Assembly (NCBI GenBank): GCA_964016885.1
Contig: OZ024756.1
Location: forward strand, 43,338,001 to 43,402,000
Length of the DNA stretch: 64,000 nt
Direction: 5' to 3'
From: Eledone cirrhosa
Taxonomy: Eukaryota
Part shown: piece after piece, positions 50,400 to 64,000 of the stretch
Position numbering within the stretch: the first letter of the stretch is position 1
Layout of the letters: each line of letters starts with the position of its first letter
The notes under the pieces: model-generated
The model's input: the letters and a program-made list of their open reading frames with translations, nothing else
Told to the model about the DNA's origin: nothing
The model's database searches: none
Program-made: the position numbers and the translations under genes

Positions 50400-51180
50400 C
50401 ATACACACAAAGACAGAGGAAACATTACATTACGCAGACACATACACACATATATACATACATACACACACATACAAACAGTCATACATACACACAGATA
50501 TACATACATACACACACATACAAACAGGCATACATACACATACAAACAGATATACATACATACACACACATACAAACAGTCATACATACACATACATACA
50601 GATATACATACATACACACCCATACAAACAGTCATACATACACATACACACTTATATACATACATACACATACAAACAGTCATACATACACATACACACA
50701 TATATACATACATACACACACATACAAACAGTCATACATACATATACACACAGATATACATACATACACACACATACAAACAGTCATACATACACATACA
50801 CACATATATACATACATACACACACATACAAACAGTCACATATACACATATATACATACATACACACACATACAAACAGACATACATACACATACACACG
50901 TATATGCATACATACACATACACACGTATATGCATACATACACAACAAAACAGTCATACATACACATACACACAGATATACATACACAAACATACAAACA
51001 GTCATACATACACATATACACAGATATACATACATACACATACAAACAGTCATACATACACATACAAACAGTCATACATACATACACACACATACAAACA
51101 GATACATACATACACACACGTACAAACAGTCACCCATACACATACACACACATACATACATGTGCACACATATATATGTA
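50400..51180. repeat. CA/TA-rich compound mini/microsatellite with variable ~30-56-bp units anchored on CATACAAACAG(T/A)CATAC
   Basis: Read directly: the motif CATACAAACAG recurs more than 10 times amid (CATA)/(CA) runs. Confidence 0.95.
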
Positions 51181-51268: not shown

Positions 51269-51595
51269 TTTTTACAGACTTCGGTGACGATATATTCGTA
51301 TTTGCTGCACAATGAAAATGTGTTGCATCTTCGCAATTAGGGTTATTTTTCCAGCACTGATACTCTCCATTCCATCCCTTATGTGCTGGTATTTTACAGT
51401 CAAAACCAGGTGTAACTTGTCCTCTCCTAAATCCACCTGTACCTTTGTTGTAATTCCATTGTATAACCTGAGTTCTATTTCGTAGGAGTTTCAAGACAGT
51501 TACCACATTTAAGTCACCAGTTGCCTTACATGTTATATTTATTCTAGCTGATGATCCAACTCGAAATTCAGGTGTTATAGATTTGATATATATAT
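51269..51595 (-). CDS. Internal exon B (327 nt, phase 1-1): V-like Ig domain of an uncharacterised IgSF protein
   Basis: Acceptor ...TTCCATATTTTATATACAG|AT and donor A|GTAAGT; no stops. Translation: IYIKSITPEFRVGSSARINITCKATGDLNVVTVLKLLRNRTQVIQWNYNK...FDCKIPAHKGWNGEYQCWKNNPNCEDATHFHCAANTNISSPKSVK. It has a B-strand 'G..A.I..TC' and an F-strand D-x-x-x-F-x-C, plus sequons NIT, NRT and NIS. The V-set assignment is by eye. Confidence 0.85.
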
Positions 51596-51739
51596 CTGTA
51601 TATAAAATATGGAAGAGGAGAAAATGTTTAGACAAAGATTTATTTAAAAAATAACATATATAATGGCGGGTAGAGAACAACTAAGACGGAGAAGAAATCA
51701 ATAATAGAAAAACTAGAGAAATACAGTTGTGAATGATAA

Positions 51740-51841
51740 AAGAAGAAGAAGAAGAAGAAGAAGAAGAAGAAGAAGAAGAAGAAGAAGAAGAAGAAGAAGA
51801 AGAAGAAGAAGAAGAAGAAGAAGAAGAAGAAGAAGAAGAAG
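51740..51841. repeat. Perfect (AAG)34 microsatellite; (CTT)n on the gene's sense strand
   Basis: 102 bp of uninterrupted AAG. Confidence 0.97.
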
Positions 51842-52090
51842 CATGGAGACATGAATAAGTCTGTATTTCAAACATTAACATATCTCACATGGAAACATAC
51901 AATCATGTATATATACAAACATGTATTGATAGAGGCAGACATATATTTAAAAATATGGAATCTCTCTCATCTAATATGCCCAATCTCAATTTTTTCAAAT
52001 TCCATCCCACCCGTCCCCTCAATCTATTTTCTTTCTCATTCTTTCTTTTGATGAAGGACTAGCGTCCGAAACGTTAAGACCCTCTTCCTG
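51842..52090 (+). mobile_element. Decayed Penelope-like element remnant: GIY-YIG endonuclease C-terminal trace followed by a pseudo-LTR-like region
   Basis: Frameshifted translation HGDMNKSVFQ.../...CIDRGRHIFKNMESLSSNMPNLN resembles the PLE endonuclease C-terminus (S.vf.H...R...ES.i....P.LN). It is followed by a pyrimidine-rich tract and TGATGAAGGAC...GTCCGAAACGTT, typical of PLE termini. Recognised by eye; no search was run. Confidence 0.55.
52044..52079 (+). ncRNA. Minimal type-I hammerhead ribozyme-like motif (core variant, possibly inactive)
   Basis: Stem I is TCTT (52044-47)/AAGA (52076-79). The core is UUGAUGA (52048-54; U replaces C3) plus an extra A. Stem II is GGAC-tagc-GTCC (52056-67), followed by GAAA, a palindromic loopless stem III (ACGT) and a GUU cleavage triplet (52073-75). 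Confidence 0.65.
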
Positions 52091-52163
52091 CTATATCAAG
52101 TCTTAACCTAATATATACCTTCCATATACGGTACCGATTGTGTGGTTATTTCTGTTTACCTTT

Positions 52164-52190
52164 TACATACATACATATATATATATACAT
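52164..52190. repeat. Short (CATA)/(TA) microsatellite
   Basis: ACATACATACATATATATATATACAT read directly. Confidence 0.8.
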
Positions 52191-52211
52191 AAAAGAAAAT
52201 ATTTTGCTTAC

Positions 52212-52526
52212 ATCTATCTGTAGGGTTGAATACAAAGCCAAGTTTCATTTTAAATGCTGAACAGGTGATGGTTATATTGGGGTAGTCTTCAATTGTTACG
52301 TTGTAGGCAAACTGTGACTCTAATGAAACATAACATTTGTTAATTTTTGGAATCTTCACAGATTTTTGACTGACTTCTGTTTCATTACTTCCATGTGTTA
52401 CACTCCATCTAAACAGGACAGTCTCTTCAGCATTTGGAACAATATTTAAATGACATCTGAAGGTAGATATCTCATTACGTATGTGGTTCTCAGTGTCAGA
52501 CGTCAGAGTATTCATTGAAGATTTCA
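52212..52526 (-). CDS. Internal exon A (315 nt, phase 1-1): C2-like Ig domain of the same IgSF protein
   Basis: Acceptor TTTTATCTTTTCAG|TG and donor T|GTAAGC; no stops. Translation: KSSMNTLTSDTENHIRNEISTFRCHLNIVPNAEETVLFRWSVTHGSNETEVSQKSVKIPKINKCYVSLESQFAYNVTIEDYPNITITCSAFKMKLGFVFNPTDR. It has a B-strand Cys (FRC), C-strand Trp (FRW) and F-strand Cys (ITC), plus sequons NET, NVT and NIT. Confidence 0.87.
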
Positions 52527-52540: not shown

Positions 52541-52547
52541 TGTTAAA

Positions 52548-52684
52548 TAAATAATTGTTTCTACTTTTGGCACAACGCCATCAAATACCCAATGTATTAC
52601 TGGTACTTTATTTTATCGACCCTGTAAGGATGAAAGGCAAAGTTATCCTCAACGGGATTTGAACACAGATCATAAAGGGCCGTA
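52548..52684 (-). mobile_element. 5'-truncated tRNA-derived SINE, copy 1 (octopus-like family)
   Basis: On the minus strand, a Pol III B-box GTTCAAATCC (52655-52664) is followed by CTTTGCCTTTCATCCTTACAGGGTCGATAAAATAAAGTACCAG and a 3' end TTGTGCCAAAAGTAGAAAC. It resembles abundant octopus SINEs as I recall them; the family name is unverified. Confidence 0.8.
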
Positions 52685-52846
52685 TAAATAATTGTTTCTA
52701 CTTTAGGCACAAGGCCAGCAATTATCCAGTACATTACTGGTACTTTATTTTATCGACCCCGTAAGGATGAAAGGCAAAGTTAACCTCGGCGGGATTTGAA
52801 CTCAGACTGTAAAGGGACGTAACTATGCTAGAAAGCATGGCTTCGG
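52685..52846 (-). mobile_element. 5'-truncated tRNA-derived SINE, copy 2, flanked by an 18-bp direct repeat
   Basis: Same motifs as copy 1, offset 137 bp (B-box 52792-52801). AAGGGCCGTATAAATAAT occurs at 52675-52692 and at 52847-52864. Confidence 0.8.
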
Positions 52847-53094: not shown

Positions 53095-56000
53095 ATTGGA
53101 CACACACTAGAGACAGACATTGGACACACACTAGAGACAGATATTGGACACACACTAGAGACAGACATTGGACACACACACTAGAGACAGACATTGGACA
53201 CACACTAGAGACAGACATTGGACACACACTAGAGACAGATATTGGACACACATTACAGACAGACATTGGACACACACTTGAGACAGAAATTGGACACACA
53301 CTAGAGACAGACATTGGACACACACACTAGAGACAGCCATTGGACACACACTAGAGACAGACATTGGACAGACACTAGAGACATACAGTGGACACACACT
53401 ACAGACAGACATTGGACACACACTAGAGACAGACATTGGACACACACACTAGAGACAGACATTGGACACACACTAGAGACGGACATTGGACACACACTAG
53501 AGACAGACATTAGACACACACTAGAGACAGACATTGGACACACACTAGAGACAGACATTGGACACACACTAGAGAGAGATATTGGAGACACACACTAGTG
53601 ACCGACATTGGAGACACACACTAGAGACAGACATTGGACACACACTAGAGACAGACATTGGACACACACTAGAGACAGACATTGGACACACACTAGAGAC
53701 AGACATTGGACACACACCAGAGACAGACATTGGACACACAATAGAGACAGACATTGGACACACACTAGAGACAGACATTAGACACACACTAGAGACAGAC
53801 ATTGGACACACACTAGAGACAGAAATTGGACACCCACTAGAAACAGACATTGGACACACACACTAGAGACAGACATTGGACACACACTAGAGACAGACAT
53901 TGGACACACACTAGAGACAGACATTGGACACACACTAGAGACAGACATTGGACACACACTAGAGACAGACATTGGACACAGACACTAGACACATACATTG
54001 GACACACACAGTAGAGAAAGACATAGGACACACACTAGAGACAGACATTAGACACACACTAGAGACAGACATTGGACACACACTAGAGACAGACATTGGA
54101 CACACACTAGAGACAGACATTGGACACACTAGAGACAGACACTGGACACACACTAGAGACAGACATTGGACACACACTAGAGACAGACATTGGACATAGA
54201 CACTAGAGACAGACATTGGACACACACAGAAGAGAAAGACATTGGACACACACTAGAGACAGACATTTGACACACACTAGAGACAGACATTGGACACACA
54301 CTAGAGACAGACATTGGACACAGACACTAAAGACAGACATTGGACACACACTAGAGACAGACATTGGACACACACTAGAGACAGACATTGGACACACACT
54401 AGAGACAGACATTAGACACACACTAGAGACAGACATTGGACACACACTAGAGACAGAAATTGGACACCCACTAGAAACAGACATTGGACACACACACTAC
54501 AGACAGACATTGGACACACGCTAGAGACAGACATTGAACACACTAGAGACAGACATTGGACACACACTAGAGACAGACATTGGACACAGACACTTGACAT
54601 ATACATTGGACACACACAGTAGAGAAAGACATAGGACACACACTAGAGACAGACATTAGACACACACTAGAGACAGACATTGGACACACACTAGAGACAG
54701 ACATTGGACACACACTAGAGACAGACATTGGACACACTAGAGACAGACATTGGACACACATTAGAGACAGACATTGGACACACACTAGAGACAGACATTG
54801 GACACAGACACTAGAGACAGACATTGGACACACACAGAAGAGAAAGACATTGGACACACACTAGAGACAGACATTTGACACACACTAGAGACAGACATTG
54901 GACACACACTAGAGACAGACATTGGACACAGACACTAAAGACAGACATTGGACACACACTAGAGACAGACATTGGACACACACTAGAGACAGACATTGGA
55001 CACACACTAGAGACAGACTTTAGACACACACTAGAGACAGACATTGGACACACACTAGAGACAGAAATTGGACACCCACTAGAAACAGACATTGGACACA
55101 CACACTACAGACAGACATTGGACACACGCTAGAGACAGACATTGAACACACTAGAGACAGACATTGGACACACACTAGAGACAGACATTGGACACAGACA
55201 CTTGACATATACATTGGACACACACTAGAGACAGACATTGGACACAGACACTAGACACATACATTGGACACACACAGGAGAGAAAGACATAGGACACACA
55301 CTAGAGACAGACATTAGACACACACTAGAGACAGACATTGGACACACACTAGAGACAGACATTGGACACACACTAGAGACAGACATTGGACACACATTAG
55401 AGTGAGACATTGGACACACACTAGAGACAGACATTGGACACACACTAGAGACAGACATTTGACACACACAGTAGAGAAAGACATTGGACACACACTAGAG
55501 ACAGACATTGGACACACACTAGAGAGAGATATTGGAGACACACACTAGTGACCGACATTGGAGACACACACTAGAGACAGACATTGGACACACACTAGAG
55601 ACAGACATTGGACACACACTAGAGACAGACATTGGACACACACTAGAGACAGACATTGGACACACACCAGAGACAGACATTGGACACACAATAGAGACAG
55701 ACATTGGACACACACTAGAGACAGACATTAGACACACACTAGAGACAGACATTGGACACACACTAGAGACAGAAATTGGACACCCACTAGAAACAGACAT
55801 TGGACACACACACTAGAGACAGACATTGGACACACACTAGAGACAGACATTGGACACACACTAGAGACAGACATTGGACACACACTAGAGACAGACATTG
55901 GACACACACTAGAGACAGACATTGGACACAGACACTAGACACATACATTGGACACACACAGTAGAGAAAGACATAGGACACACACTAGAGACAGACATTA

Positions 56001-59000
56001 GACACACACTAGAGACAGACATTGGACACACACTAGAGACAGACATTGGACACACACTAGAGACAGACATTGGACACACACTAGAGACAGACATTGGACA
56101 TAGACACTAGAGACAGACATTGGACACACACAGAAGAGAAAGACATTGGACACACACTAGAGACAGACATTTGACACACACTAGAGACAGACATTGGACA
56201 CACACTAGAGACAGACATTGGACACAGACACTAAAGACAGACATTGGACACACACTAGAGACAGACATTGGACACACACTAGAGACAGACATTGGACACA
56301 CACTAGAGACAGACATTAGACACACACTAGAGACAGACATTGGACACACACTAGAGACAGAAATTGGACACCCACTAGAAACAGACATTGGACACACACA
56401 CTACAGACAGACATTGGACACACGCTAGAGACAGACATTGAACACACTAGAGACAGACATTGGACACACACTAGAGACAGACATTGGACACAGACACTTG
56501 ACATATACATTGGACACACACAGTAGAGAAAGACATAGGACACACACTAGAGACAGACATTAGACACACACTAGAGACAGACATTGGACACACACTAGAG
56601 ACAGACATTGGACACACACTAGAGACAGACATTGGACACACTAGAGACAGACATTGGACACACACTAGAGACAGACATTGGACACACACTAGAGACAGAC
56701 ATTGGACACAGACACTAGAGACAGACATTGGACACACACAGAAGAGAAAGACATTGGACACACACTAGAGACAGACATTTGACACACACTAGAGACAGAC
56801 ATTGGACACACACTAGAGACAGACATTGGACACAGACACTAAAGACAGACATTGGACACACACTAGAGACAGACATTGGACACACACTAGAGACAGACAT
56901 TGGACACACACTAGAGACAGACATTAGACACACACTAGAGACAGACATTGGACACACACTAGAGACAGAAATTGGACACCCACTAGAAACAGACATTGGA
57001 CACACACACTACAGACAGACATTGGACACACGCTAGAGACAGACATTGAACACACTAGAGACAGACATTGGACACACACTAGAGACAGACATTGGACACA
57101 GACACTTGACATATACATTGGACACACACAGTAGAGAAAGACATAGGACACACACTAGAGACAGACATTAGACACACACTAGAGACAGACATTGGACACA
57201 CACTAGAGACAGACATTGGACACACACTAGAGACAGACATTGGACACACTAGAGACAGACATTGGACACACATTAGAGACAGACATTGGACACACACTAG
57301 AGACAGACATTGGACACAGACACTAGAGACAGACATTGGACACACACAGAAGAGAAAGACATTGGACACACACTAGAGACAGACATTTGACACACACTAG
57401 AGACAGACATTGGACACACACTAGAGACAGACATTGGACACAGACACTAAAGACAGACATTGGACACACACTAGAGACAGACATTGGACACACACTAGAG
57501 ACAGACATTGGACACACACTAGAGACAGACATTAGACACACACTAGAGACAGACATTGGACACCCACTAGAAACAGACATTGGACACACACACTACAGAC
57601 AGACATTGGACACACGCTAGAGACAGACATTGAACACACTAGAGACAGACATTGGACACACACTAGAGACAGACATTGGACACAGACACTTGACATATAC
57701 ATTGGACACACACTAGAGACAGACATTGGACACAGACACTAGACACATACATTGGACACACACAGGAGAGAAAGACATAGGACACACACTAGAGACAGAC
57801 ATTAGACACACACTAGAGACAGACATTGGACACACACTAGAGACAGACATTGGACACACACTAGAGACAGACATTGGACACACATTAGAGTGAGACATTG
57901 GACACACACTAGAGACAGACATTGGACACACTAGAGACAGACATTTGACACACACAGTAGAGAAAGACATTGGACACACACTAGAGACAGACATTGGACA
58001 CACACTAGAGAGAGATATTGGAGACACACACTAGTGACCGACATTGGAGACACACACTAGAGACAGACATTGGACACACACTAGAGACAGACATTGGACA
58101 CACACTAGAGACAGACATTGGACACACACTAGAGACAGACATTGGACACACACCAGAGACAGACATTGGACACACAATAGAGACAGACATTGGACACACA
58201 CTAGAGACAGACATTAGACACACACTAGAGACAGACATTGGACACACACTAGAGACAGAAATTGGACACCCACTAGAAACAGACATTGGACACACACACT
58301 AGAGACAGACATTGGACACACACTAGAGACAGACATTGGACACACACTAGAGACAGACATTGGACACACACTAGAGACAGACATTAGACACACACTAGAG
58401 ACAGACATTGGACACAGACACTAGACACATACATTGGACACACACAGTAGAGAAAGACATAGGACACACACTAGAGACAGACATTAGACACACACTAGAG
58501 ACAGACATTGGACACACACTAGAGACAGACATTGGACACACACTAGAGACAGACATTGGACACACTAGAGACAGACATTGGACACACACTAGAGACAGAC
58601 ATTGGACACACACTAGAGACAGACATTGGACATAGACACTAGAGACAGACATTGGACACACACAGAAGAGAAAGACATTGGACACACACTAGAGACAGAC
58701 ATTTGACACACACTAGAGACAGACATTGGACACACACTAGAGACAGACATTGGACACAGACACTAAAGACAGACATTGGACACACACTAGAGACAGACAT
58801 TGGACACACACTAGAGACAGACATTGGACACACACTAGAGACAGACATTAGACACACACTAGAGACAGACATTGGACACACACTAGAGACAGAAATTGGA
58901 CACCCACTAGAAACAGACATTGGACACACACACTACAGACAGACATTGGACACACGCTAGAGACAGACATTGAACACACTAGAGACAGACATTGGACACA

Positions 59001-62000
59001 CACTAGAGACAGACATTGGACACAGACACTTGACATATACATTGGACACACACTAGAGACAGACATTGGACACAGACACTAGACACATACATTGGACACA
59101 CACAGGAGAGAAAGACATAGGACACACACTAGAGACAGACATTAGACACACACTAGAGACAGACATTGGACACACACTAGAGACAGACATTGGACACACA
59201 CTAGAGACAGACATTGGACACACATTAGAGTGAGACATTGGACACACACTAGAGACAGACATTGGACACACACTAGAGACAGACATTGGACACACTAGAG
59301 ACAGACATTGGACACACATTAGAGACAGACATTGGACACACACTAGAGACAGACATTGGACACAGACACTAGAGACAGACATTGGACACACACAGAAGAG
59401 AAAGACATTGGACACACACTAGAGACAGACATTTGACACACACTAGAGACAGACATTGGACACACACTAGAGACAGACATTGGACACAGACACTAAAGAC
59501 AGACATTGGACACACACTAGAGACAGACATTGGACACACACTAGAGACAGACATTGGACACACACTAGAGACAGACATTAGACACACACTAGAGACAGAC
59601 ATTGGACACACACTAGAGACAGAAATTGGACACCCACTAGAAACAGACATTGGACACACACACTACAGACAGACATTGGACACACGCTAGAGACAGACAT
59701 TGAACACACTAGAGACAGACATTGGACACACACTAGAGACAGACATTGGACACAGACACTTGACATATACATTGGACACACACTAGAGACAGACATTGGA
59801 CACAGACACTAGACACATACATTGGACACACACAGGAGAGAAAGACATAGGACACACACTAGAGACAGACATTAGACACACACTAGAGACAGACATTGGA
59901 CACACACTAGAGACAGACATTGGACACACACTAGAGACAGACATTGGACACACATTAGAGTGAGACATTGGACACACACTAGAGACAGACATTGGACACA
60001 CACTAGAGACAGACATTTGACACACACAGTAGAGAAAGACATTGGACACACACTAGAGACAGACATTGGACACACACTAGAGAGAGATATTGGAGACACA
60101 CACTAGTGACCGACATTGGAGACACACACTAGAGACAGACATTGGACACACACTAGAGACAGACATTGGACACACACTAGAGACAGACATTGGACACACA
60201 CTAGAGACAGACATTGGACACACACCAGAGACAGACATTGGACACACAATAGAGACAGACATTGGACACACACTAGAGACAGACATTAGACACACACTAG
60301 AGACAGACATTGGACACACACTAGAGACAGAAATTGGACACCCACTAGAAACAGACATTGGACACACACACTAGAGACAGACATTGGACACACACTAGAG
60401 ACAGACATTGGACACACACTAGAGACAGACAATGGACACACACTAGAGACAGACATTGGACACACACTAGAGACAGACATTGGACACAGACACTAGACAC
60501 ATACATTGGACACACACAGTAGAGAAAGACATAGGACACACACTAGAGACAGACATTAGACACACACTAGAGACAGACATTGGACACACACTAGAGACAG
60601 ACATTGGACACACACTAGAGACAGACATTGGACACACTAGAGACAGACATTGGACACACACTAGAGACAGACATTGGACACACACTAGAGACAGACATTG
60701 GACATAGACACTAGAGACAGACATTGGACACACACAGAAGAGAAAGACATTGGACACACACTAGAGACAGACATTTGACACACACTAGAGACAGACATTG
60801 GACACACACTAGAGACAGACATTGGACACAGACACTAAAGACAGACATTGGACACACACTAGAGACAGACATTGGACACACACTAGAGACAGACATTGGA
60901 CACACACTAGAGACAGACATTGGACACAGACACTAGACACATACATTGGACACACACAGTAGAGAAAGACATAGGACACACACTAGAGACAGACATTAGA
61001 CACACACTAGAGACAGACATTGGACACACACTAGAGACAGACATTGGACACACACTAGAGACAGACATTGGACACACTAGAGACAGACATTGGACACACA
61101 CTAGAGACAGACATTGGACACACACTAGAGACAGACATTGGACATAGACACTAGAGACAGACATTGGACACACACAGAAGAGAAAGACATTGGACACACA
61201 CTAGAGACAGACATTTGACACACACTAGAGACAGACATTGGACACACACTAGAGACAGACATTGGACACAGACACTAAAGACAGACATTGGACACACACT
61301 AGAGACAGACATTGGACACACACTAGAGACAGACATTGGACACACACTAGAGACAGACATTAGACACACACTAGAGACAGACATTGGACACACACTAGAG
61401 ACAGAAATTGGACACCCACTAGAAACAGACATTGGACACACACACTACAGACAGACATTGGACACACGCTAGAGACAGACATTGAACACACTAGAGACAG
61501 ACATTGGACACACACTAGAGACAGACATTGGACACAGACACTTGACATATACATTGGACACACACAGTAGAGAAAGACATAGGACACACACTAGAGACAG
61601 ACATTAGACACACACTAGAGACAGACATTGGACACACACTAGAGACAGACATTGGACACACACTAGAGACAGACATTGGACACACTAGAGACAGACATTG
61701 GACACACACTAGAGACAGACATTGGACACACACTAGAGACAGACATTGGACACAGACACTAGAGACAGACATTGGACACACACAGAAGAGAAAGACATTG
61801 GACACACACTAGAGACAGACATTTGACACACACTAGAGACAGACATTGGACACACACTAGAGACAGACATTGGACACAGACACTAAAGACAGACATTGGA
61901 CACACACTAGAGACAGACATTGGACACACACTAGAGACAGACATTGGACACACACTAGAGACAGACATTAGACACACACTAGAGACAGACATTGGACACA

Positions 62001-64000
62001 CACTAGAGACAGAAATTGGACACCCACTAGAAACAGACATTGGACACACACACTACAGACAGACATTGGACACACGCTAGAGACAGACATTGAACACACT
62101 AGAGACAGACATTGGACACACACTAGAGACAGACATTGGACACAGACACTTGACATATACATTGGACACACACAGTAGAGAAAGACATAGGACACACACT
62201 AGAGACAGACATTAGACACACACTAGAGACAGACATTGGACACACACTAGAGACAGACATTGGACACACACTAGAGACAGACATTGGACACACTAGAGAC
62301 AGACATTGGACACACACTAGAGACAGACATTGGACACACACTAGAGACAGACATTGGACACAGACACTAGAGACAGACATTGGACACACACAGAAGAGAA
62401 AGACATTGGACACACACTAGAGACAGACATTTGACACACACTAGAGACAGACATTGGACACACACTAGAGACAGACATTGGACACAGACACTAAAGACAG
62501 ACATTGGACACACACTAGAGACAGACATTGGACACACACTAGAGACAGACATTGGACACACACTAGAGACAGACATTAGACACACACTAGAGACAGACAT
62601 TGGACACACACTAGAGACAGAAATTGGACACCCACTAGAAACAGACATTGGACACACACACTACAGACAGACATTGGACACACGCTAGAGACAGACATTG
62701 AACACACTAGAGACAGACATTGGACACACACTAGAGACAGACATTGGACACAGACACTTGACATATACATTGGACACACACTAGAGACAGACATTGGACA
62801 CAGACACTAGACACATACATTGGACACACACAGGAGAGAAAGACATAGGACACACACTAGAGACAGACATTAGACACACACTAGAGACAGACATTGGACA
62901 CACACTAGAGACAGACATTGGACACACACTAGAGACAGACATTGGACACACATTAGAGTGAGACATTGGACACACACTAGAGACAGACATTGGACACACA
63001 CTAGAGACAGACATTTGACACACACAGTAGAGAAAGACATTGGACACACACTAGAGACAGACATTGGACACACACTAGAGAGAGATATTGGAGACACACA
63101 CTAGTGACCGACATTGGAGACACACACTAGAGACAGACATTGGACACACACTAGAGACAGACATTGGACACACACTAGAGACAGACATTGGACACACACT
63201 AGAGACAGACATTGGACACACACCAGAGACAGACATTGGACACACAATAGAGACAGACATTGGACACACACTAGAGACAGACATTAGACACACACTAGAG
63301 ACAGACATTGGACACACACTAGAGACAGAAATTGGACACCCACTAGAAACAGACATTGCACACACACACTAGAGACAGACATTGGACACACACTAGAGAC
63401 AGACATTGGACACACACTAGAGACAGACATTGGACACACACTAGAGACAGACATTGGACACACACTAGAGACAGACATTGGACACAGACACTAGACACAT
63501 ACATTGGACACACACAGTAGAGAATGACATAGGACACACACTAGAGACAGACATTAGACACACACTAGAGACAGACATTGGACACACACTAGAGACAGAC
63601 ATTGGACACACACTAGAGACAGACATTGGACACACTAGAGACAGACATTGGACACACACTAGAGACAGACATTGGACACACACTAGAGACAGACATTGGA
63701 CATAGACACTAGAGACAGACATTGGACACACACAGAAGAGAAAGACATTGGACACACACTAGAGACAGACATTTGACACACACTAGAGACAGACATTGGA
63801 CACACACTAGAGACAGACATTGGACACAGACACTAAAGACAGACATTGGACACACACTAGAGACAGACATTGGACACACACTAGAGACAGACATTGGACA
63901 CACACTAGAGACAGACATTGGACACACACTAGAGACAGATATTGGACACACACTAGAGACAGACATTAGACACACACTAGAGACAGACATTGGACACACA
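53095..64000. repeat. Second array of the same 24-bp satellite in the same orientation, ~450 monomers, with 608-bp HOR subunits; open at the right window edge
   Basis: Starts ATTGGACACACACTAG at 53095, with a degenerate monomer from ~53073. The +608 offset recurs (54203/54811, 56107/56715/57323, 61151/61759/62367). The marker CTAGTGACCGAC recurs at ~53.6, 55.5, 58.0, 60.1 and 63.1 kb (spacings 1950, 2486, 2072, 2998). Confidence 0.99.

Follow-up and report, generated by a model that had tools for sequence, protein, structure and literature searches.

AGCT-rich sequence is the common denominator of the immunoglobulin (Ig) heavy-chain switch regions of mouse and Xenopus, which depend on it, with help from a G-rich coding strand (PMC2442634). 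Another arrangement is found in the sea urchin SpTrf (Sp185/333) genes, where each whole gene is bordered by 30-165 GA units, while GAT repeats mark the ends of 13.5-kb duplications whose genes are 99.7% identical (PMC3342357). B7-H3 (CD276), a type I membrane protein with 4Ig and 2Ig forms, is built from tandem IgV-IgC modules that arose by exon duplication, and occurs in single-module form in relatives; the passages on it mention no satellite arrays (PMC13680445). Small exons lying within giant, satellite-containing introns have been described for the Drosophila kl-3 and kl-5 genes (PMC6508621), while the Alr cluster of Hydractinia is an invertebrate example of a group of atypical IgSF receptors that begin with a V-set domain, some of which carry ITIMs (PMC9546547).

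A 24-bp satellite on both sides of a 2.7-kb island

The window, i.e., the whole 64-kb stretch of DNA analysed here, consists of a single 24-bp satellite that is interrupted by one island, so that the two arrays stand 2.7 kb apart. The left array (positions 1-50401) and the right array (53096-64000) are both open at the window edge, with at least 50 kb and 11 kb in view, respectively; on the strand of the gene described below, the left array lies downstream of a V-type exon and the right array upstream of a C-type exon. Wraparound alignment parsed them into 2075 (left) and 447 (right) units, with a mean identity of about 94% to the modal unit in both. As the first-pass annotation had noted, the arrays have the same orientation and the same consensus: a common modal unit accounts for 31% of the left and 41% of the right units. 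Its further remark that the variant sets are distinct holds as well, with 248 distinct units on the left, 39 on the right, and 16 in common. The long open reading frames of the satellite and of the minisatellite that adjoins the left array are mere repeat translations and were set aside.

An assembly error in the array sizes or in the position of the island is extremely improbable. Exact duplications of 1.2-1.5 kb within arrays can trouble assemblers, but the 64-kb window contains no N, the variant profiles of the left array shift gradually, and both array edges are unique.

The SpTrf genes had been proposed as a loose analogy, and in both cases simple repeats adjoin duplicated immune-type coding sequence. 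The analogy fails on position, since the SpTrf microsatellites surround whole genes, whereas here hundreds to thousands of 24-mers lie in introns, beside internal phase-1 exons; in addition, a single cassette is present in the 64 kb, with no duplicate in view. Drosophila kl-3 and kl-5 offer a different comparison, in which the present locus stands out by introns of at least 11 and at least 50 kb, a 24-bp unit with higher-order repeats, and an Ig-fold receptor gene.

Structure of the two exons

The island contains two exons on the minus strand: exon A (52212-52526, 315 nt), which is transcribed first and probably encodes a C-type (C2/C1-set-like) Ig domain, and exon B (51269-51595, 327 nt), for a V-type Ig-fold domain. 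Both are preceded by a pyrimidine tract and an AG acceptor and followed by a GTAAG donor, with phase 1 at all four ends. When spliced across the 616-nt C-to-V intron (51596-52211, minus strand), they give 642 nt, i.e., 213 codons without a stop. The first-pass annotation emphasized that this two-exon cassette is frame-neutral (642 nt, phase 1 at both ends). While this is true, it is not a property of the pair, as each exon on its own is a multiple of three with phase 1-1. In-frame skipping of the exons by splicing is already possible. Phase 1-1 is the usual state of Ig domains that are encoded by one exon. The same phase-1 bias has been described for the sponge AF genes (PMC5400394). Importantly, the order of the exons, C-type and then V-type, implies that the pair is not one natural module.

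Identity of the encoded domains

Pfam detected no Ig family in either exon, and nothing at all for exon B at E<=1; with the relatives described below, Ig matches were found in three of six and were sub-threshold only. Sequence searches of solved structures returned only three weak, unrelated matches for each exon, and none of the 39 candidates that a word search for exon B drew from proteins 190-2000 aa long was a match. A phmmer search with the exon A product among 1.84 billion proteins, by comparison, retrieved seven sequences at E<=0.001, six of which belong to one family (best E 2.5e-12), so that the exons cannot be put down to chance. One match, the 1691-aa repeat protein P0007 (E 1.7e-4), was judged unrelated and was excluded prior to all alignments. 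P0004, which is without the junction motif, was omitted from the identity tables and trees. When the relatives were searched back against the window with tblastn, they matched exactly exons A and B, and the domain boundaries of the family coincide with the exon ends.

The exon B product aligns with the first domain of the Octopus family with pairwise E values of 8e-21 to 1e-15. Hallmarks of V domains are the B- and F-strand Cys, the latter within a D-x-x-x-aromatic-x-C motif, and IgSF V-type domains usually have a Trp in the C strand. Exon B has both Cys and the motif, with C22, D89, and C95 invariant in all eight rows of the alignment, but no C-strand Trp, in place of which there is an invariant Leu36. 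Of its five Cys (positions 22, 66, 80, 87, and 95), all are invariant in the family. In the Atlas, exon B lies closest to unnamed mollusc clusters (0.95), followed by V-set clusters (0.91-0.93). Its AlphaFold2 model (pLDDT 76.7, pTM 0.71), compared with 48,161 chains, matches domain 1 of nectin-2 best (Z 9.1, rmsd 2.6, 87 residues aligned); 22 chains reach Z>=8, and among those listed most are V domains of antibodies, TCRs, nectins, and Siglecs. As modelled, the exon B product is a V-type Ig-fold domain with the Ig beta-sandwich fold.

Exon A retains the Cys/Trp core of a C domain. In the Atlas its top matches (0.93) are clusters of the C1-set and C2-set_2 types, and the best family matches fall into one clan in 10 of 10 cases. 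In addition, the model of the relative P0003 matches Fab chains across V and C (E 6e-8). Given the Atlas placement and this model, the exon A product is likely a C-type (C2/C1-set-like) Ig domain.

An uncharacterised Octopus family of V-C proteins

Both exons were assigned, on the basis of homology and shared domain boundaries, to an uncharacterised Octopus V-C family (LOC115221679, LOC118766833, LOC106878948, LOC106883640). A profile search listed eight members, all named Octopus, which makes an octopod the likely source of the window. Identity to the relatives is 31-44% for the V domain (exon B) and 26-40% for the C domain (exon A). P0003, P0009, and P0010 consist of a signal peptide, a V domain, a C domain, and a membrane anchor, while P0006 and P0008 end in a hydrophobic tail instead; the V/C junction of the relatives falls at the end of exon B and the start of exon A. 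No signal-peptide or membrane-anchor exon was found with the relatives by tblastn in the island, including its C-to-V intron; such exons, and those for a tail, would be expected past the arrays. The build of the family, the reversed order of the two exons, and the absence of an anchor or signal between them together indicate that the island likely straddles two successive V-C modules, closing the first and opening the second, in an uncharacterised receptor gene whose product is probably located at the cell surface. Both arrays would then sit in V-to-C introns, with the outer V and C exons beyond the window.

Other gene models bear on the number of modules. P0001 reads as a V end, a C domain, and a V domain, with its two V ends identical at 12 of 14 positions, and P0005 has two C domains that are 85% identical to each other, although both are "hypothetical predicted" models of an ab initio type, which may fuse separate neighbouring genes. 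P0001, P0005, and P0010 may come from one cluster, as the length of the longest contig is the same for all three. No relative exceeding 706 aa was found, and the profile search among proteins of 707-2015 aa yielded none from 5488 candidates and hence no long (V-C)n protein, an absence that weighs little. The transcript may be V-C-V-C, as in 4Ig B7-H3, or carry one module at a time on shared ends. The octopus gene would follow the V-C repeat logic of B7-H3, which is a resemblance in build rather than a demonstrated kinship in sequence; its V domain differs from that of B7-H3 by three extra invariant Cys and by the missing C-strand Trp.

Comparison of the relatives with each other reveals an uneven divergence. 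P0010 and P0009 are only 53% identical across V residues 63-144, compared with 98% for the C domain and 100% for the tail; for P0008 and P0005, the V domains are 45% identical and the last C domains 98%. Across P0009, P0010, P0001, P0008, and P0005, V domains are 45-62% identical, C domains 97-98%, and tails 100%. A divergent V domain with a nearly fixed C domain and tail is a pattern typical of recognition receptors, and judged from these sequences the family may be a candidate variable recognition receptor. P0009 carries an ITIM consensus at residue 403, in a region that is missing from the P0010 model; this adds a likeness to the Alr receptors of Hydractinia (ITIM definition from PMC9546547). 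In trees, the V and C domains of the window form long end branches with no supported (starred) placement. A search of the open-access main-text literature found no report on this family or locus.

Exchange within and between the arrays

The presence of direct repeats on both sides of the exons had led to the claim that a crossover between the arrays would delete or duplicate two Ig domains in frame. As a conditional statement this is right, and indeed stronger than it was put: given that both arrays probably occupy introns of the V-to-C class, recombination between them would take out or insert a C exon together with a V exon, in frame, and leave the alternation of V and C intact. The same annotation went on to propose a system for recombinational shuffling or diversification, and here the arrays themselves are informative.

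Within each array, duplication is extensive. The longest exact match is 1517 bp on the left and 1245 bp on the right, and tracts with at least three variant units number 530 and 168, respectively, some of them with copies more than 30 kb apart. Internally duplicated tracts take up 84% of the units of the left array, where the commonest offsets are 1.8-9 kb, and 93% of those of the right array, where the shortest common offset is 608 bp. Between the arrays, the longest exact match is 127 bp. Tracts with at least three variant units shared by left and right number zero in this one haplotype, where about 86 would be predicted from the way the rate depends on distance in the left array (tracts not being independent events). 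Tracts with at least two variants number five, compared with a shuffled mean of 3.3 (sd 2.8), and the 20 substitution types common to both arrays are at chance level (19.6 expected). Where they meet the island, both arrays are unamplified, over the last 2.8 kb on the left and the first 0.44 kb on the right. The arrays thus show no trace of mutual DNA exchange in the one haplotype available, a comparison to which other haplotypes and one-way deletions are invisible. Of the features expected for repeat-mediated recombination (NAHR), flanking direct repeats of high identity are present, while signs of exchange such as conversion tracts and hybrid arrays are absent from this haplotype. The proposal of a diversification system accordingly finds no positive support in the shared tracts or the shared substitutions, and the arrays likely reflect ordinary repeat growth instead.

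Homology length bears on this as well. In mouse cells, recombination is 20-fold lower when uninterrupted homology falls from 232 to 134 bp, yet human crossovers at matches of less than 50-114 bp do occur, especially between nearby repeats (PMC2583991). With a maximal match of 127 bp, a crossover between left and right would be disfavoured but not barred, to the extent that these data carry over to octopus.

A germline role for the arrays, in which occasional unequal crossovers between them make haplotypes differ in the number of V-C modules or the pairing of V with C, a variation maintained by selection acting on a variable receptor, nonetheless has several points in its favour: the arrays are in perfect register, agreeing in intron class, orientation, and phase, tens of kb at about 94% identity lie only 2.7 kb apart, and the relatives pair varied V domains with a nearly fixed C domain and tail. 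The total lack of shared multi-variant tracts, however, means that neither rounds of duplication and deletion nor long conversions have affected this haplotype after its higher-order repeats arose. Furthermore, P0010 and P0009 are 92% identical over the first 25 V residues and their identity drops within the V exon rather than at the intron between V and C; selection or patchy conversion would account for this better than crossovers in the intron. Such a role is therefore unlikely.

The structure of the left array calls for some caution. By its higher-order repeats it falls into sectors at about 1-22 kb, 24-45 kb, and 45-50 kb, and its 1-5 kb block has tracts in common with the 30-40 kb region. 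The 45-50 kb block has a single tract in common with the remainder of the left array, so that a block can be isolated without the island intervening, a point that counts against the preferred reading given below. In addition, the right array resembles the left array in its substitution spectrum at 25-45 kb (correlation 0.37-0.50) but hardly over the first 20 kb (-0.07 to 0.16), and a variant of 7 bases is found nowhere but in the final, degenerate unit of the left array (50390) and in five units of the right array (55398, 57886, 59226, 59956, and 62954). The latter is the one hint of a history shared by left and right beyond the modal unit. Either an exchange long ago or a shared origin could account for both the correlation and the variant.

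Comparison with programmed rearrangement

An analogy with Ig switch regions had also been drawn. As in those regions, long direct tandem repeats lie in introns upstream of C-type exons, provided that the left array is followed by a C exon, as the build of the family predicts, and a deletion would stay in frame. This position, together with the strand bias of the arrays (AT skew of about 0.5), would suit a programmed somatic deletion in which breaks are targeted by transcription and joining in immune cells drops the C-V pair and brings V1 onto C2; arrays that are distinct in the germline are compatible with such one-way deletion. The hallmarks that were tested fail, however. AGCT is absent from both arrays (50,392 bases scanned on the left and 10,905 on the right), there are no G4 patterns in them, and the sense strand, with 24% G, 20% C, and 42% T, is not G-rich, in contrast to the coding strand of mammalian switch regions, which can form R loops. 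In contrast to switch regions, moreover, a V exon lies between the arrays. The signals of V(D)J rearrangement are an RSS heptamer and nonamer beside the exons; there is no heptamer on either strand of the 64-kb window and no nonamer in the island. In-frame skipping by splicing could, besides, already leave out the exons. A switch-like somatic deletion is very unlikely.

Origin of the arrays

The best explanation, to which we assign a probability of roughly 0.58, is a tandemly duplicated V-C gene in which the two arrays are copies of one intronic repeat that were carried along and have grown separately since. According to this scheme, the 24-mer would have arisen from an AC-rich minisatellite in a V-to-C intron, and tandem duplication of the V-intron-C module would have left each of the two V-to-C introns with a copy of the repeat, oriented alike. 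Growth of each array would then have come from slippage or unequal exchange within that array or with its allele, the other array taking no part, as perfect matches of 1.2-1.5 kb within arrays but of 127 bp between them suggest. The arrays would be removed by splicing as giant introns, without any programmed function, and in-frame gain or loss of a C-V pair might happen as a rare accident of the germline and not as a system. That both arrays occupy the same class of intron in the same orientation is what a module duplication predicts; the duplication itself is deduced rather than seen, since the neighbouring V and C exons lie beyond the window. Octopus genomes have a high content of simple repeats, which account for 14.7% of the genome in Octopus minor (PMC6279123).

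A source for the satellite may be present next to the left array, where a degenerate AC-rich minisatellite with a spacing of 22-52 bp (50420-51170) resembles the 24-mer. Their local alignment score of 56, against a null mean of 25.8, was reached by one of 1000 shuffles of the 24-mer, which is a crude null; on sequence grounds the minisatellite is a candidate progenitor or sister of the satellite.

Alternatively, the arrays could owe their kinship to local seeding and not to duplication of a module, a few units of a satellite born in one intron having been copied past the 2.7-kb island to the following large intron of the gene and expanded there, with no role in recombination. The common modal unit and orientation at such a short distance would be expected in that case, as would a candidate progenitor on the left only and the rare variant that the left edge shares with the right array. 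Seeding leaves unexplained, however, why the arrays fill both V-to-C introns but skip the C-to-V intron, and just one 13-base look-alike of the satellite is found inside the island, which makes this route rather improbable.

It is also conceivable that the 2.7-kb island is a gene fragment that was copied into a pre-existing satellite block, and that its exons are a young, unexpressed relic. No other exon was found in the 61 kb of the window that flank the island, and both domains have long end branches in the trees, although a distant species would give the same. The exons have nevertheless kept their open frames, canonical splice sites, all five family Cys in V, and the Cys/Trp core in C, and no target-site duplication is evident by eye at the junctions. 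The left array fades into the related minisatellite, and both edges are unamplified, as at old borders, which points to a satellite born in a V-to-C intron more than to an island inserted into a block; we consider an inserted relic quite improbable.

Significance of the locus and minor features of the island

If the module duplication is the correct reading, the locus would be a clear case of satellite growth within the introns of a duplicated V-C Ig gene, in which a unique stretch of 2.7 kb coincides with the complete absence of shared tracts between the arrays, while sharing within one array spans 30-45 kb. The more valuable by-product may be the unstudied octopus V-C family itself, with its strongly divergent V domain, nearly fixed C domain and tail, and one ITIM consensus. 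A satellite in each V-to-C intron might also serve as a recombination register, with crossovers that add, drop, or re-pair modules without a frameshift and thereby set a new V domain on the C domain and ITIM tail; this is doubtful for the germline and scarcely credible for somatic cells, but would, if true, mean a polymorphic self/non-self or immune receptor in cephalopods. Module shuffling driven by the arrays would amount to a DNA-level route to receptor diversity in cephalopods, and the mollusc and cephalopod parts of a 2026 review list no such route (PMC13428168).

The island also contains a number of features outside the exons. The Rfam search across it gave 18 matches, all in or near AC-rich repeats and far under the gathering scores, which were rejected. 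A hammerhead-ribozyme-like core is present at 52048-52110 on the plus strand, antisense to the gene, whose 4-bp hairpin and 8-bp stem adopt the expected fold; its stability (z -1.76) was equalled in nine of 200 shuffles, the core contains mismatches, and it has no match in Rfam. It may be a relic of a Penelope-type retroelement. Two tandem copies of a 137-bp unit (52547-52821, strand unassigned), with 87% match, begin 20 bases upstream of the exon A acceptor and are presumably octopus SINE-like. Finally, the C-to-V intron carries a perfect (AAG)34 microsatellite at 51740-51841 on the plus strand.
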